DNA of 9,478 nucleotides from a virus (taxonomy: Duplodnaviria; Heunggongvirae; Uroviricota; Caudoviricetes), in IMG/VR virus record IMGVR_UViG_2648501186_000020. One strand, written 5' to 3'. Shown one piece after another: positions 3,517-8,281 of this stretch (position 1 is its first letter; each line of letters begins with the position of its first letter). Position numbers and translations under genes: made by a program. The notes under the pieces are model-generated. The model saw only the letters and a list, made by a program, of their open reading frames with translations, had not been told where the DNA came from and ran no database searches.

Positions 3517-4043
3517 TTGCGTAACTCCGATAATTCGTTAAAGCGTTCCATAAACATCCCGTAGGCATGGCCTGGAGCCAGTGGAATCACGTTGAACATC
3601 TCTGTTGCCGGGATACCTTCCAGCACAGGCCAGAAAGAGCCATCATCAAGCCCGAGATCGCGGCGTTCGGTTGCCAGCATAATGAGATCGGCATATTTCA
3701 CTGGCGTGCTCATAACAGGAGGTAACCCGTATTTCTCACGGATTACGGCGTCTATTTTTTCTTCCATCCGTTTATAGTCAGGAAGAAGTCGTTTCAGTGG
3801 TGCGGGGATGTCCTGGCAATATGCTTCTGTTGCATCATGCATTAAAGCTTCAAAAGCAAATTCCTGCGGCACCAGCTGGCTGCAAAGCACCGCATGTTGG
3901 GCGACACTGTAGAAGTGTGAAAGATGTCCTGCAAAGCGACAGATATTTGAAAGGGAAACCGCGATATCGTTAATAACGATGTCGTCTTTATTTATCCTGT
4001 CATAATAAAAATGCTTCCCGGAAAAAGTTTTAATAAATGACAT
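3507..4043 (-). CDS. yfdR: HD-domain phosphohydrolase, 178 aa (YfdR-like 5'-deoxynucleotidase family)
   Basis: HD motif visible in LMHDATEAY. Start MSFIKTF at 4043 is preceded by SD GGAG with 6-nt spacer. The track's longer form starting at 4070 lacks an SD. Strongly resembles CPS-53 YfdR, from memory. Confidence 0.8.
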   Translation of the reverse strand: MSFIKTFSGKHFYYDRINKDDIVINDIAVSLSNICRFAGHLSHFYSVAQHAVLCSQLVPQEFAFEALMHDATEAYCQDIPAPLKRLLPDYKRMEEKIDAVIREKYGLPPVMSTPVKYADLIMLATERRDLGLDDGSFWPVLEGIPATEMFNVIPLAPGHAYGMFMERFNELSELRKCA

Positions 4044-4168
4044 TTTGTTCTCCACGTATATGCGCTGCACCGCGCTGAATTCCGGTAAAAGGAAGCCCTC
4101 ACCGTCCGGCGATTATTGAGTCAATTACATTTCCATAAATGCCCCCGTAGGGGCGGTTAGTTTCTCCA

Positions 4169-4255
4169 CAAAACAGAGAAGAACACCTGCGGTGGCAGCC
4201 GCCCGGATGGATTGGGTTATGAGCCCGTCGTCCGGTGATGCTCTTCTCTGTTTTG
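4169..4255. repeat. Perfect 14-bp inverted repeat CAAAACAGAGAAGA / TCTTCTCTGTTTTG enclosing a 59-nt GC-rich loop
   Basis: Read directly from the sequence. Arms are exact reverse complements. The loop contains further short complementary segments (GCGG/CCGC, CCGG/CCGG). Confidence 0.85.
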
Positions 4256-4523
4256 TAAAAAGGACGGTACCAGCCGGAAGCAAGGGTACAAGCTGGTACC
4301 GCCAAGACTACACACAGCATAAAGTTGTGGTGCCGGGTGCCTCCCGGTGCCTGGCGAAGGTTGCACACCAGGCGGGTGGGTATCCACAGAAGGTCGACTG
4401 TCAGCCTCAACCTTAACCCGCGTGCGCTGAGCCGCATTCACCACAACGCTAAGGATTCTCTCTGGTTGAAAATACTTAGCTGTTATGTGCCTGCTTTTAG
4501 CCACATCAGGCGAGGTGGACCTA

Positions 4524-4572
4524 GTTATTCCCCAACAACAAGGATTCGGTTAATCTGGTTATCCCCAACAAC
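4524..4572 (+). repeat. Two direct repeats GTTAT(T)CCCCAACAAC, 34 bp apart, immediately upstream of the orf144 RBS; a third degenerate copy (CCACAACGCTAAGGATTC) lies at 4441-4458
   Basis: Copies at 4524-4539 and 4558-4572. The AAGGATTC...CTGGTT context also recurs at 4451-4468 and 4540-4560. Confidence 0.7.
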
Positions 4573-4587
4573 GCAAAAGGAAAAGAA

Positions 4588-5022
4588 ATGTCCGGTAATA
4601 TCTATACGCTGTACAAATCCCACTGTGAAAATGTTGGAAAGTATCGGGGCATTGAAATCAGTGGGGTAGTGTCATCAGTCGAAATAAGCAAAGTTGAATC
4701 AAGGGCAACATTACTTACTCTTTTGGACCTTGTCTTACATGAGCACCGGAAGAAATTCGGCACTCCCTATAATCAGTTGAATGGGAAAAAGGCTCTGGTT
4801 CACCTTATTCTGATGAAGCATCACTGGATGCCAAAACAGATTAATGAGATGAAATTTGATGAACTTCTTCTTTCAATTCAGGATGAACTCACACTTGATA
4901 AAATAAGCGTAACCGCCCAGAAATTTTTAGATTATCGAGACTGGAGATCACAAATTCATCATTTTGATGATTTTGACGAAAATGAATGGGATCCTAATTT
5001 GTCTGCACAATATCTAAAGTAA
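4588..5022 (+). CDS. Orphan hypothetical protein, 144 aa, transcribed opposite to the flanking phage early-left operon
   Basis: ATG preceded by SD AAGGA (4577-4581) with 6-nt spacer. Protein-like composition with His/Lys-rich centre (HEHRKKF, MKHHWMPK) and acidic C-terminus (HHFDDFDENEWDP). A plus-strand intrinsic terminator follows at 5260-5285. No family recognised. Confidence 0.75.
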   Translation: MSGNIYTLYKSHCENVGKYRGIEISGVVSSVEISKVESRATLLTLLDLVLHEHRKKFGTPYNQLNGKKALVHLILMKHHWMPKQINEMKFDELLLSIQDELTLDKISVTAQKFLDYRDWRSQIHHFDDFDENEWDPNLSAQYLK

Positions 5023-5200
5023 CATCCTGTGATAAAACCGTGATTTCCTGATCCAGTTTTTTTAAGGAGTCTATTGTTTCCTGTCGATAAGACAGCACTT
5101 CACGAAGCTGGTTTATAGCTGCCAGCTTCTTTGTCATCCACTCATAAATTTCCTCATCTGTGTAGCCAGGCGCGACGATTTTGGGTTCTGTTTTGTGCAT
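4994..5200 (-). CDS. Small hypothetical protein, 68 aa; first gene downstream of PL
   Basis: ATG at 5200 with strong SD GAGGAG and 7-nt spacer. The track's longer form uses an upstream TTG. Stop TAG at 4994-4996 overlaps the 3' end of orf144 by 29 bp (convergent). No arginine-rich N-like motif; mid-region may be helical (AAINQLREVLSYRQETIDSLKKLDQEI). Confidence 0.6.
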   Translation of the reverse strand: MHKTEPKIVAPGYTDEEIYEWMTKKLAAINQLREVLSYRQETIDSLKKLDQEITVLSQDVTLDIVQTN

Positions 5201-5245
5201 TTCACATCTCCTCAAGTTATCAGTTACTTGTTGATGGGGACCAGA

Positions 5246-5257
5246 TTGTTAAAGAGC
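5246..5257 (-). promoter_or_regulatory. boxA-like element (GCTCTTTAACAA on the minus strand) in the PL leader, 2 nt downstream of a hairpin
   Basis: Minus-strand reading AGCGCCCTACAGGACGCT-TA-GCTCTTTAACAATCTGG. The 12-mer matches the rrn / lambdoid nut boxA consensus as I recall it. Position is between PL and the first PL gene. Confidence 0.4.
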
Positions 5258-5259
5258 TA

Positions 5260-5285
5260 AGCGTCCTGTAGGGCGCTTTTTTGTT
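5260..5285 (+). terminator. Rho-independent terminator, plus strand (likely ends the orf144 transcript)
   Basis: Stem AGCGTCC / GGGCGCT (7 bp including one G-U), loop TGTA, followed by TTTTTTGTTG. The same hairpin on the minus-strand transcript is the one adjacent to the boxA-like element. Confidence 0.55.
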
Positions 5286-5367
5286 GCTAACGAATCATCC
5301 TGGACTTCATATGCCCCAGGCGGCTACTTCGTGGGCGTCCTGCCTGTTCGTTGTTTCGCTTGGGTAC

Positions 5368-5395
5368 ATTATGTATCTCAAAGGTACATTGTCAA
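5368..5395 (-). promoter_or_regulatory. PL-like sigma70 promoter with overlapping operator (OL)
   Basis: Minus strand reads TTGACA (5395-5390), 16-nt spacer, CATAAT (5373-5368). Palindrome TACAT-T-ATGTA (5365-5375) overlaps the -10. GGTACA half-sites at 5363-5368 and 5383-5388 resemble the OR half-sites. Confidence 0.6.
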
Positions 5396-5396
5396 G

Positions 5397-5422
5397 TATA
5401 AAAAAACCTGCCGAAGCAGGTT
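5397..5422 (-). terminator. Rho-independent terminator just downstream of cI (minus strand)
   Basis: Minus-strand hairpin AACCTGC-TTCG-GCAGGTT followed by a 7-U run. It lies 13 nt after the cI stop. Confidence 0.6.
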
Positions 5423-5434
5423 CATAAACATTGA

Positions 5435-6109
5435 TTAGGCTTTGATTTTGTATCTTCTTGGTTTTCCTGAGAAAATCACTGTACCAATTATAGAGCAATT
5501 ACCGTTGATCTTAATGTAAGGCTCAGGCCAGTTTGGGTTTAACGCTTTGAGATAACGCTGTGTCCCATCTTCTATCAACCTTTTGAAGGTGGTTTCACCT
5601 GTATCGTGCATCAATGCAATAACGTCGTCACCGTGGCAGGCAGGTACTTCAGGATCGACAAAAATCATGTCTCCCGGGCGGTACTCATCAATCATTGAAT
5701 CACCTATCACCCGCAAGATATAAGTCATTTCCCCACAGGGTACAGGGCAGGGATACGTTTCTGCTGTGCTCAAATCAACCTCAGAATATCCAACTTCTTT
5801 CCATGCTCCGGCCTGTACCCATGATATGACAGGGACTAATGTGATTTGTTTATTAGTGATTGAAACATCAGGTTTTTTTGTGATGTTCGTTGTCTGGTGT
5901 TCTTGATCGAGCCATCCGACAGGCAGGTCGAAACATTTTTCGATGTGTCGTGCCATGCTGTCACCGATATTTTTAGTAGCACCATCTCCCATAAACCTGC
6001 TGGTCTGGGTTGGCTCGCGATCAATCATAGTGGCAAAGGAAGAATTCCCGCCAACACCATCTCTCAGTTTTCTGGCGTTAGACCGCCGGATGTCATGGAT
6101 TGTTTTCAT
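5435..6109 (-). CDS. cI: Prophage repressor, CI / C2-like, 224 aa (N-terminal HTH, C-terminal S24 LexA-like autopeptidase)
   Basis: C-terminal VIGDSMIDEYRPGDMIFVD contains the S24 Ser motif; TFKRL supplies the Lys. Candidate Ala-Gly cleavage site in WVQAGAW. Divergent from a cro-like gene across an operator-rich spacer. Confidence 0.88.
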   Translation of the reverse strand: MKTIHDIRRSNARKLRDGVGGNSSFATMIDREPTQTSRFMGDGATKNIGDSMARHIEKCFDLPVGWLDQEHQTTNITKKPDVSITNKQITLVPVISWVQAGAWKEVGYSEVDLSTAETYPCPVPCGEMTYILRVIGDSMIDEYRPGDMIFVDPEVPACHGDDVIALMHDTGETTFKRLIEDGTQRYLKALNPNWPEPYIKINGNCSIIGTVIFSGKPRRYKIKA

Positions 6110-6124
6110 AACGAAATTAAAACC

Positions 6125-6197
6125 CTTGTACCGTTAAGGTACAAGTATCTTGAAGGTTCATTTCAATCATGTAATATGTACACCGGAGGTACATATT
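6125..6197 (+). promoter_or_regulatory. OR operators with PR (and presumably PRM) between cI and cro
   Basis: Palindrome CTTGTACC-GTTAA-GGTACAAG (6125-6145). Second inverted repeat AATATGTAC-N7-GTACATATT (6173-6197). PR candidate TTGAAG (6150-6155), 16-nt spacer, TAATAT (6172-6177). Cro SD GGAGG at 6185-6189. Confidence 0.55.
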
Positions 6198-6199
6198 GT

Positions 6200-6400
6200 A
6201 TGAAAGCGTATTGGGACTCTTTAACCAAAGAACAGCAGGGCGAGTTGGCCGGAAAAGTTGGCTCAACACCTGGCTACTTACGGCTGGTTTTCAATGGCTA
6301 TAAAAAAGCCAGTTTTGTGCTGGCTAAAAAACTTGAGCAATGCACGTCAGGTGCAATTACGAAATCTGACTTAAGACCGGATATCTATCCGAAAGATTAG
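6200..6400 (+). CDS. cro: Cro-like HTH regulator, 66 aa
   Basis: ATG at 6200 with SD GGAGG 10 nt upstream. Small basic protein (MKAYWDSLTKEQQGELAGKVGSTPGYLRLVFNGYKK...) divergent from cI. The track's 167-aa form is an in-frame upstream extension that runs antisense through cI. Confidence 0.8.
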   Translation: MKAYWDSLTKEQQGELAGKVGSTPGYLRLVFNGYKKASFVLAKKLEQCTSGAITKSDLRPDIYPKD

Positions 6401-6431
6401 CAGAACACTTTCAATTTTTAACCACAGAACG

Positions 6432-6995
6432 ATGAGGCTAATCGTGGGTAAGCATCACTGGAAAATAGAAAAACAGCCTGAGTGGTACGTGAAAGCTGTC
6501 AGAAAAACTATCGCGGCGTTGCCGGGTGGTTACGCTGAAGCGGCTGACTGGCTCGATGTAACAGAAAACGCTTTATTCAACCGCCTTCGTGCAGATGGCG
6601 ATCAGATTTTCCCGCTGGGATGGGCAATGGTTTTACAGCGTGCTGGTGGCACTCACTTCATTGCTGATGCTGTGGCGCAGTCTGCAAATGGCGTCTTTGT
6701 GTCTCTTCCTGACGTCGAGGATGTGGACAACGCCGATATCAACCAACGCCTGCTGGAGGTCATTGAACAGATCGGCAGTTATTCAAAACAGATTCGTTCA
6801 GCAATTGAAGACGGTGTAGTGGAACCGCATGAGAAGACAGCAATTAACGACGAGTTGTACCTCTCAATTTCGAAGCTGCAGGAGCATGCAGCACTGGTCT
6901 ACAAAATTTTTTGCATTTCAGAAAGTAATGACGCCCGCGAGTGTGCAGCTCCGGGCGCCGTGGCGTGTCGTGACTGTGGAGAAACTAACGCATGA
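6432..6995 (+). CDS. Hypothetical protein at the cII position, 187 aa (possibly a YdaT-like CII functional analogue)
   Basis: ORF directly after cro. A GTG at 6444 with SD GAGG (6434-6437) may be the true start. C-terminus is Cys-rich ([14 protein letters not shown]). Stop TGA overlaps the next ATG as ATGA. Product assignment is a guess from position. Confidence 0.6.
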
Positions 6996-7330: not shown

Positions 7331-7350
7331 AGGTCGGTCATGAGCACTAA
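7129..7350 (+). CDS. Alternative small ORF, 73 aa, mutually exclusive with 6992..7330 over most of its length
   Basis: More protein-like composition ([34 protein letters not shown]). Ends 11 nt into the O-like gene. No obvious SD at its ATG. Confidence 0.3.
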
Positions 7351-8281
7351 ATTAACCGGCTATGTATGGGATGGTTGCGCAGCGTCAGGCATGAAATTAT
7401 CCAGCGTGGCAATTATGGCCCGCTTGGCTGATTTCAGTAATGACGAAGGTGTGTGCTGGCCATCAATTGAAACCATTGCCCGCCAGATTGGCGCGGGGAT
7501 GAGTACCGTCAGAACGGCTATCGCACGGCTGGAAGCAGAAGGCTGGTTAACGCGTAAGGCGCGTCGCCAGGGTAACCGCAATGCGTCGAATGTTTATCAG
7601 CTTAACGTTGCGAAGCTTCAGGCAGCGGCATTTTCTCAACTGTCAGATTCTGACCCGTCAAAATCTGACGTATCAAAATCTGACCCGTCAAAATTTGATG
7701 CGTCGAAATCTGGCAAAAAAGCGGGTTTTCACCCGTCAGAATCTGGCGGGGATCCGTCAGTAAAATCAAAACATGATCCGTCAGATAAAAAACCTTCTCG
7801 TCCGGACGCTTCGCAACCGGACACGCAGACGGCTGAACAGGATTTTTTAACTCGCCATCCTGATGCGGTTGTATTCAGCCCTAAAAAGCGCCAGTGGGGA
7901 ACGCAGGATGATTTGACCTGCGCACAGTGGCTCTGGAAAAAAATCATTGCCCTGTACGAGCAGGCCGCCGAATGTGACGGCGAGGTGGTTCGTCCCAAAG
8001 AACCGAACTGGACAGCATGGGCAAACGAAATTCGCCTGATGTGTGTGCAGGATGGTCGTACTCACAAACAAATCTGCGAGATGTACAGCCGCGTCAGCCG
8101 CGATCCGTTCTGGTGCCGTAACGTGCTCAGCCCGTCGAAGTTGCGGGAAAAATGGGATGAGCTTTCCCTGCGCTTATCGCCGTCCGTCAGCACGCACACA
8201 GAAAAACGTGAAGACCCGTACTTCAAAGCCAGTTACGACAACGTGGACTACAGCCAGATCCCGGCAGGATTCAGGGGGTGA
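7340..8281 (+). CDS. Replication initiation protein, lambda O-like (N-terminal HTH, repeat linker, C-terminal domain), 313 aa
   Basis: SD AGAGG with 6-nt spacer. N-terminus has the replication-initiator-type HTH (SVAIMARLADFSNDEGVCWPSIETIARQIGAGMSTVRTAIARLEAEGWL). Internal iterons encode a DPSKSD repeat linker. Sits at the O position after cro and the cII-position gene. Confidence 0.82.
   Translation: MSTKLTGYVWDGCAASGMKLSSVAIMARLADFSNDEGVCWPSIETIARQIGAGMSTVRTAIARLEAEGWLTRKARRQGNRNASNVYQLNVAKLQAAAFSQLSDSDPSKSDVSKSDPSKFDASKSGKKAGFHPSESGGDPSVKSKHDPSDKKPSRPDASQPDTQTAEQDFLTRHPDAVVFSPKKRQWGTQDDLTCAQWLWKKIIALYEQAAECDGEVVRPKEPNWTAWANEIRLMCVQDGRTHKQICEMYSRVSRDPFWCRNVLSPSKLREKWDELSLRLSPSVSTHTEKREDPYFKASYDNVDYSQIPAGFRG
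7652..7792 (+). repeat. Putative replication origin iterons inside the O-like gene: four in-frame tandem 15-bp repeats (7652-7711) plus three more spaced CCGTCAG copies
   Basis: GACCCGTCAAAATCT / GACGTATCAAAATCT / GACCCGTCAAAATTT / GATGCGTCGAAATCT, then CCGTCAGAATCTGG (7733-7746), CCGTCAGTAAAATC (7755-7768), CCGTCAGATAAAAA (7778-7791). Analogous to lambda ori inside gene O. Confidence 0.6.

Follow-up and report, generated by a model that had tools for sequence, protein, structure and literature searches.

A convergent gene pair facing the PL operon of an Escherichia coli prophage: a candidate effector and antidote module

There are two small genes, orf144 and orf68, that meet tail to tail on opposite strands within the early-left (PL) operon of a lambdoid prophage. 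We examined them in a stretch of 9,478 nucleotides filed as virus record IMGVR_UViG_2648501186_000020 (the window, to which all coordinates refer unless a locus label is given). The window is Escherichia coli chromosome, 100% identical to E. coli EC4: proA, a tRNA-Thr gene (1369-1444) and then a prophage of the SfV/SfIV/e14/ST64B type. The pair recurs across genera and in two genomic slots, always with the same orientation to the lytic operon; in the window it forms an exchangeable cassette, and both genes are under purifying selection. The reading that we tentatively favour is that orf144 encodes an effector expressed in the lysogen and orf68 its lytic-phase antidote, the two making up a module within a noncontiguous operon. 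Taking the analysis as a whole, we find this plausible, if a little short of probable.

Arrangement of the pair and of its transcripts

orf144 faces the PL operon, while orf68 and all the flanking early-left genes lie on the - strand. The features on which the argument turns are as follows.

4588-5022, + strand: orf144, 144 amino acids, ATG start, with AAGGA 6 nt upstream
5200-5198 (ATG) to 4996-4994 (stop codon TAG), - strand: orf68, 68 amino acids
4994-5022, both strands: convergent 3' overlap of orf144 and orf68, 29 bp
5213-5208, - strand: Shine-Dalgarno sequence GAGGAG of orf68, 7 nt from the ATG, read from the sequence
5395-5390 (TTGACA) and 5373-5368 (CATAAT), 16-nt spacer, - strand: PL-like promoter, 11/12 match
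5259-5278 with a T-run to 5285, + strand: intrinsic terminator for rightward transcripts, 8-bp stem and 4-nt loop

An earlier note on this DNA had described a 29-bp convergent 3' overlap, with the stop codon of orf68 inside the 3' end of orf144, and had called orf68 the first gene after PL, equipped with a strong Shine-Dalgarno sequence. The coordinates agree with both descriptions: orf68 is the first open reading frame (ORF) downstream of a near-consensus PL, which is the top promoter match within 3900-6500. The program-made ORF list begins orf68 further upstream, at TTG 5215 (73 amino acids).

The same note had placed a terminator at 5260-5285, beyond the start of orf68, and it is present there as the hairpin and T-run listed above. 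The terminator is directional, because its T.G pairs become A.C mismatches in leftward RNA. It is kept in E. albertii and in a metagenomic relative of 65% DNA identity (locus L012), with changes in or beside the loop. A cassette of the PhiR29 type uses the same terminator, ~39 nt past its single + strand gene, and the terminator therefore serves rightward cargo genes. A terminator would not fit between orf144 and orf68, and we found no conserved - strand intrinsic terminator from the orf68 stop codon to the 3' end of an STnc100-like RNA near 4254. Three candidates were set aside. A hairpin at 5104-5129 that might have ended orf144 transcripts earlier has a weak T-tract, is not kept in L012 and is probably mere coding sequence; two terminator-like - strand sites within orf144 (4919-4904 and 4824-4792) are weak and not conserved.

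With no terminator between the genes, a convincing + strand terminator only past the start of orf68 and no conserved - strand terminator before 4254, the two transcripts are mutually antisense, as the earlier note had proposed. A rightward orf144 transcript must cover the whole of orf68 in antisense, including its ribosome-binding site, and a PL transcript must cover all of orf144 in antisense, reading through orf144 and the structured region beyond it.

Conservation of the partnership, its orientation and its slot

An overlap of 29 bp is by itself unremarkable; a convergent abutment that recurs across genera is not chance. We recovered contexts of orf144 homologues at 72%, 56%, 52% and ~30-35% identity, from E. 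albertii, a metagenome, Serratia, Yersinia (three species), Pectobacterium, the Salmonella phage ST64B and the Klebsiella phage KPP5665-2. Convergent abutment is seen at 10 loci in seven genera, with orf144 homologues down to ~30% identity. The pair is also present in E. coli and Shigella phages, and the two genes are convergent wherever they occur together. Counted by lineage, a small opposite-strand ORF converges on the 3' end of the orf144-type gene in 9 of 11. The partners share the N-terminal pattern M-x-K-x-E-P-x-I-x-A-P-x(4)-E-E-L-x-x-W-L, and profile-profile comparison finds the E. coli set homologous to that of the other genera (hhalign 94.9%, E 4.6e-8).

The lengths of the overlaps differ between lineages (29, 44, 64, 71-95 and 194-203 bp), and the C-terminal tail of orf68 is frameshift-variable within E. 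coli. The distance from the partner's ATG to the stop codon of the orf144-type gene is held at 157-187 nt, so that in every lineage with the pair the ~55-codon conserved core of the small protein ends no more than 25 nt to either side of that stop. Judged from these sequences, the conserved feature is tight convergent packing together with the partnership and the orientation, not the 29 bp.

In three modules the overlap takes in (E/D)WDP, the motif best conserved among orf144 homologues: Serratia (L021, ~2862-2935), Salmonella (L111, 2709-2779) and Klebsiella (L112, 2697-2791). Their partners read this stretch on the opposite strand as PWDPSP. Both proteins carry W-D-P from the same bases because the DNA is the palindrome TGGGATCCCA.

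The pair occupies two slots. One lies directly to the left of the gene for a cI-type repressor, in E. coli, E. albertii, Yersinia and Pectobacterium; the other lies between the Q antiterminator gene and the holin gene, in Serratia, ST64B and Klebsiella phages. In the records of this second slot the large gene is unannotated and the small gene is annotated sb50 or GP45. In every case and in both slots the orf68-like gene is read in the direction of the lytic operon, and the orf144-like gene opposes that direction. As far as sequence comparison goes, we take this orientation rule to be the strongest support for what would be a link to the lytic or lysogenic state. Because two slots are occupied, the pair is a mobile unit and not an accident of the PL region. 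In one Yersinia prophage a SieB-family superinfection-exclusion gene (L103, 3327-3821, + strand) stands directly after the orf144 homologue and before cI, a neighbour that is consistent with the slot housing exclusion genes expressed in the lysogen.

In the window the pair lies in a cassette between two conserved flanks, in a slot whose contents are hypervariable.

4519-5288: exchangeable cassette (upstream region of orf144, orf144, orf68 and the + strand terminator)
5286-5350, - strand: PL leader RNA, a hairpin with compensatory changes; right-hand conserved flank
4254-4477, - strand: STnc100-like structured RNA (43.4 bits against a gathering score of 47, E 6e-7), ending in a stem and U-run; left-hand conserved flank

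Against e14, SfV, SfII, PhiR29 and others, BLAST and alignment place the boundaries of the cassette sharply at 4518 (or 4572) and at 5286-5291 (or 5241). The flanks are conserved even in heteroimmune phages (e14, SfV, SfII, mEp460, ST64B and others). Of 5426 complete E. coli genomes, 399 (~7%) carry the whole cassette of the window. It is dispensable: close relatives with the same cI and cro hold other cargo or none. Several of these alternatives are themselves overlapping pairs. In e14 the slot holds ymfI (+) and ymfJ (-), convergent with a 63-bp overlap (L002, 3406-3993), and in the Salmonella phage 118970_sal3 a +/- pair with a 38-bp overlap (L009, 1814-2363). SfV has an ORF pair overlapping by 83 bp (L003, 2907-3366), in which the + strand member is an unannotated, putative ORF of 81 amino acids with a good Shine-Dalgarno sequence; SfII has one overlapping by 39 bp (L006, 2009-2368), in which the - strand member is an unannotated, putative ORF of 68 amino acids. 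Other relatives carry one + strand gene of ~165-170 amino acids (four different proteins), one - strand gene, or nothing. We detected no homology to orf144 or orf68 in the other cargo of the slot, including e14 ymfI/ymfJ and SfV orf33.

The right-hand flank, the first ~65 nt of the PL transcript, is conserved in heteroimmune e14, SfV, SfII, mEp460, ST64B and sal3. Its hairpin has two pairs with compensatory double changes (CCUGG/CCAGG, CCCGG/CCGGG, CCGGU/ACCGG), is enclosed by a CGAA/UUCG stem, and is possibly a nut- or put-like antitermination element or a processing element. The phages that share this leader have no N-like gene after PL. On the left-hand side, the stem and U-run of the STnc100-like RNA make a plausible first stop for unmodified PL transcripts. 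The annotation program PGAP calls a frameshifted 'hypothetical protein' across this RNA. STnc100 and PasD are prophage Hfq-binding small RNAs that usually lie downstream of Q, and the place of the STnc100-like element inside a PL operon contrasts with that location. In the Klebsiella phage KPP5665-2 a 108-bit STnc100 (L112, 2028-2223, - strand) holds the same relative position, to the left of the orf144-like start, between Q and the holin gene.

The two proteins, their expression signals and the surrounding prophage

orf144 belongs to the NCBIfam 'ECs1072 family phage-associated protein' and to phrog_5286. Its product, a soluble protein of 16.9 kDa, is all-helical, with an AlphaFold2 (AF2) model (predicted local distance difference test, pLDDT, 78.5). 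A profile search collects the family into ~76 clusters at 50% identity, nearly all of 145-155 amino acids, in which H72 and W134 are invariant and R54, G66, A69 and W80 nearly so. orf68 belongs to phrog_1744 and encodes an acidic protein of 7.9 kDa (pI 4.78). The predicted shape is an N-terminal segment of 14 residues followed by a single helix over residues 15-67 (pLDDT 86), a modelled form that would suit a small binder or a coiled-coil protein. The earlier note had stated that orf68 is not N-like, which holds: the protein has 2 Arg and no arginine-rich motif, and its family also occurs away from PL, in the Q-holin slot. Both proteins are hydrophilic: over 19-residue windows their hydropathy peaks at 0.29 and 0.84, and neither has a membrane segment. 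We recognised no DNA- or RNA-binding motif in either. Scans of both against Pfam, NCBIfam and PHROGs returned only families of unknown function (phrog_5286, phrog_1744 and NCBIfam ECs1072).

Both genes are maintained by selection. Nonsynonymous polymorphism (pN) is well below synonymous polymorphism (pS) in each, which indicates purifying selection. The ratio of nonsynonymous to synonymous divergence (dN/dS) is 0.22 for orf144 against E. albertii and 0.04-0.13 for the non-overlapping core of orf68.

Expression of the cassette can be approached through its upstream regions and, indirectly, through published profiles. No orf68-specific promoter was found in 5216-5290 (nothing with >=8/12 matches). 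Upstream of orf144 there are two direct repeats, 34 bp apart:

4524-4539 and 4558-4572, + strand: direct repeats GTTAT(T)CCCCAACAAC

These repeats are common to the PhiR29-type cassette, which has a different + strand gene, and to the 65%-identical relative; they may be a regulatory region, a binding site or a promoter of unusual type. A conserved, weak extended -10-like motif, TGgTATCTT, lies ~34 nt before the start codon of the homologues from Yersinia, Pectobacterium and Serratia, and likewise before that of e14 ymfI. The namesake of the family, ECs1072, changed ~2-fold (-2.13) by microarray across growth-phase transitions of O157 Sakai cultures (PMC2241611). In e14, ymfJ, which holds the position of orf68, rose by log2 4-4.8 late in the SOS response and its protein was detected, while ymfI rose by only 1-2 (PMC11002266).

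The immunity region lies to the right of the cassette.

5435-6109, - strand: cI (ymfK-like, S24 peptidase), with its own terminator at 5423-5404 (-)
5363-5377: operator-like GGTACA-N3-TGTATC overlapping the PL -10 element; the motif is repeated at PR, 6187-6201

Leftward from there the order is cI, PL, the 65-nt conserved leader, orf68 (-), orf144 (+) and the STnc100-like RNA, beyond which the - strand carries yfdR (HD phosphatase), a gene for a DUF551 protein, yfdT, xis and int. Candidate CI/Cro operators can be drawn from the half-sites GGTACA/TGTACC: TGTACC-N6-GGTACA at 6125-6145, and GGTACA-N3-TGTAYN at both PR and PL (regions 6177-6201 and 5363-5387).

Further away, four copies of a 15-bp unit (TCTGACCCGTCAAAA) lie at 7649-7712 inside an ORF for a replication-initiator-like protein of 313 amino acids (7340-8281); these repeats resemble the iterons of an origin that lies in an O-type gene. 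An Rfam match to mir-5880 at 7641-7715 is spurious, caused by these iteron-like repeats. In the E. albertii relative, matches to isrK (64 bits) and to C4 antisense RNA (82 bits) lie downstream of the cII-like gene (L010, 3464-3652); neither was matched in the corresponding region of the window.

Known designs, rival explanations and significance

The closest designs that we know from other prophages are noncontiguous operons. In phi80, the defence gene taiEcA (tail assembly inhibition) is oriented against the Q-dependent late operon and expressed by the lysogen; on induction the product of a small gene of that operon, atiEcA (anti-Tai), binds and neutralises the defence protein. Expression of Q lowers TaiEcA, and He et al. 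2024 described Tai/Ati as a 'noncontiguous operon' (PMC11364771). The pair described here shares with Tai/Ati an accessory gene opposite the lytic operon, a small overlapping partner within that operon and a home in enterobacterial lambdoid prophages. It differs in that TaiEcA has 204 amino acids and Orf144 144, and in that tai and ati, placed beyond the lysis genes, diverge and overlap by 20 bp at their 5' ends, whereas orf144 and orf68 are convergent, overlap at their 3' ends and have the small gene first. In the Listeria phage phi10403S, the TERi locus has the defence gene terI encoded opposite the early lytic module, where it overlaps the self-immunity gene anti-terI2; the site has a conserved promoter and can hold alternative cargo genes, and Tab and Tha/Ith share the TERi logic, with BstA/aba as a related case (bioRxiv 10.1101/2025.02.27.640495). 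Again the likeness is one of layout: a gene opposite an early lytic module that overlaps a partner ORF, and a conserved flank with unrelated alternative cargo. Unlike our pair, TERi has a Gram-positive host, unrelated proteins, two antidotes (anti-TerI1 and anti-TerI2) and a mapped promoter, and terI (65 amino acids) lies wholly inside its complementary gene. Two hallmarks of such operons are found here as well: a gene opposite the surrounding lytic operon in the window and at 10 homologous loci, in both slots, and a co-conserved partner within the lytic operon in the 9 of 11 lineages. With a match in layout and no sequence homology, orf144/orf68 is likely another instance of these prophage pairs.

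Other precedents fit in part. Lambda OOP directs RNase III cleavage of cII as an antisense RNA, and the convergent lytic and lysogenic promoters of 186 (and P2) interfere, in 186 by polymerase collision. Our pair resembles both in that its transcripts would converge over a 3' overlap in a manner linked to lysis or lysogeny; but those elements are core regulators (cII, cI/apl) and OOP is non-coding, whereas here there are two conserved proteins in a dispensable mobile cassette. Lambdoid morons, as reportedly set out by Juhala and colleagues in 2000, are promoter-gene-terminator units. The cassette resembles them in its presence or absence at sharp boundaries among near-identical phages and in its dedicated terminator (5259-5278); the promoter search upstream of orf144 gave no sigma-70 match. 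Classical morons, in contrast, consist of one gene, which is usually co-oriented or placed in a gap of the late region. Like rexAB, sieB and BstA/aba, exclusion genes next to cI that the lysogen expresses, the pair stands beside the immunity region; unlike it, rex, sieB and bstA are co-directional with cI. BstA, too, needs a self-immunity determinant, and that antidote is a DNA element, not a protein (PMC8585504).

Under the effector-antidote reading, orf144 and orf68 would be one two-gene accessory module inserted in the PL operon. Opposed to PL and ending at its own terminator past orf68, orf144 could be active in the lysogen, where PL is repressed. Upon inactivation of CI, orf68 would be the first gene made, and the polymerase fired from PL would pass through orf68 and then transcribe the whole of orf144 in antisense, stopping at the STnc100-like terminator or reading past it. 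Expression of orf144 would then be opposed by head-on transcription and antisense RNA just as Orf68 protein appears. Orf144 would probably have an anti-phage or exclusion function that is also harmful to its own phage, and Orf68 would bind or neutralise it, following the logic demonstrated in phi80 Tai/Ati and Listeria TERi.

Several results weigh against this reading. We found no sigma-70-type promoter upstream of orf144 (nothing with >=8/12 matches), which leaves its expression in the lysogen an assumption, and the extended -10-like motif of the homologues is not kept in the window. Two lineages with an orf144 homologue (L011 and L109/L110) have no orf68-like partner, so the partner is not obligatory. 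Overlap length and orf68 tail vary freely, which makes a sequence-specific role of the overlap unlikely. Neither protein matches a PADLOC defence model or a Pfam domain, and structure comparison of the Orf144 model gave no fold match; a defence role is therefore without homology support. Comparison of orf144/orf68 with TaiEcA/AtiEcA found no similarity (hhalign probability 0.4% and 0.1%); tblastn with orf144 likewise does not retrieve phi80. At the TERi locus, the antisense effect was seen only on over-expression or co-expression (bioRxiv 10.1101/2025.02.27.640495).

The earlier note had read the arrangement as a mutual-exclusion switch linked to lysis and lysogeny. The geometry and the orientation rule in two slots support such a link; a switch that works purely at the level of RNA would probably be only part of it. 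In that pure form the proteins would be unrelated in function, PL or late transcription would silence orf144, and orf144 transcription would dampen leaky orf68 expression or read-through from PL in the lysogen, by transcriptional interference or by RNase III cleavage of sense-antisense duplexes, as in lambda OOP/cII and at PR/PL of 186. The transcripts necessarily overlap, the placement of the + strand terminator puts the whole of orf68 with its ribosome-binding site under antisense, and the effect of Q on TaiEcA in phi80 (PMC11364771) would fit. Yet a transcriptional device would not need the same two protein families to stay paired across slots and promoters, and other cassettes in the slot work with a single + strand gene and no - strand partner. 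We consider the pure RNA switch unlikely. Since the counter-acting protein of the lytic operon is the main coupling in phi80 Tai/Ati and in Listeria TERi, where antisense effects are modest or secondary, a protein-level antidote appears to us the more likely main coupling than RNA alone.

Could the two genes instead be uncoupled, independent accessory genes packed together by economy of genome size, with the overlap a by-product of stop-codon drift? The range of overlaps (29-203 bp), the frameshift-variable tail and the lineages that lack a partner all suit this explanation, and a stop-free run of 9 codons is expected by chance. It fits poorly with a pair found in most lineages (9/11), in seven genera and two slots, with fixed spacing (157-187 nt) and a fixed orientation to the lytic operon, and we judge it decidedly unlikely. 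Regulators internal to the phage, with orf144 aiding lysogeny, orf68 an early lytic antagonist and no role against other phages, would explain the position beside cI and PL in most lineages, the more so as orf68 is the first PL gene, the usual place of regulators in lambdoid phages. Serratia, ST64B and Klebsiella phages, though, have the same pair in the interval from Q to the lysis genes, the cassette is dispensable in relatives with the same cI and cro, and the proteins lack nucleic acid-binding motifs; this account is improbable to our mind. Least of all do we expect a toxin-antitoxin or addiction module that stabilises the prophage and has nothing to do with superinfection, for which we see a very small probability. 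It would share with our pair the two-gene unit, the small proteins, the mobile cassette and the lack of recognised enzymatic domains. But type II systems are co-directional autoregulated operons and these genes converge, type I toxins are small hydrophobic peptides and both proteins here are hydrophilic, and an antitoxin behind a repressed PL would be unavailable in the lysogen. Pfam and NCBIfam scans of both proteins returned no toxin-antitoxin family, and the pair has the make-up of neither type I nor type II.

Returning to the effector-antidote reading, we note that the pair remains a well-documented, conserved, convergent overlapping pair in a noncontiguous operon even if the functional inference fails, and that it offers a natural system in which to weigh head-on transcription against an antidote protein in switching off a prophage gene at induction. 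A broader proposal, which we regard as possible but doubtful, is that orf144/orf68 is an unrecognised system of anti-phage defence with protein self-immunity, built from two families without known fold relatives and carried widely by prophages of E. coli, Shigella, Salmonella, Klebsiella, Yersinia, Serratia and Pectobacterium. Between the PL leader hairpin and the STnc100-like RNA there would then be a dedicated hotspot in which at least five unrelated convergent-overlap pairs, e14 ymfI/ymfJ of E. coli K-12 among them, are alternative defence/antidote cassettes. If this were true, a convergent overlapping pair facing a lytic promoter would become a searchable signature of new systems. The comparison also gives a rule, independent of sequence, by which further systems could be mined: a gene that faces the lytic promoter, convergently abuts the first or adjacent lytic gene and lies in a hypervariable slot with conserved flanks. 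If the effector-antidote inference holds, the long-unexplained ymfI/ymfJ, which have the same design, would gain a testable role, and ~7% of complete E. coli genomes, together with many other enterobacterial prophages, would carry an uncharacterised defence and self-immunity module.

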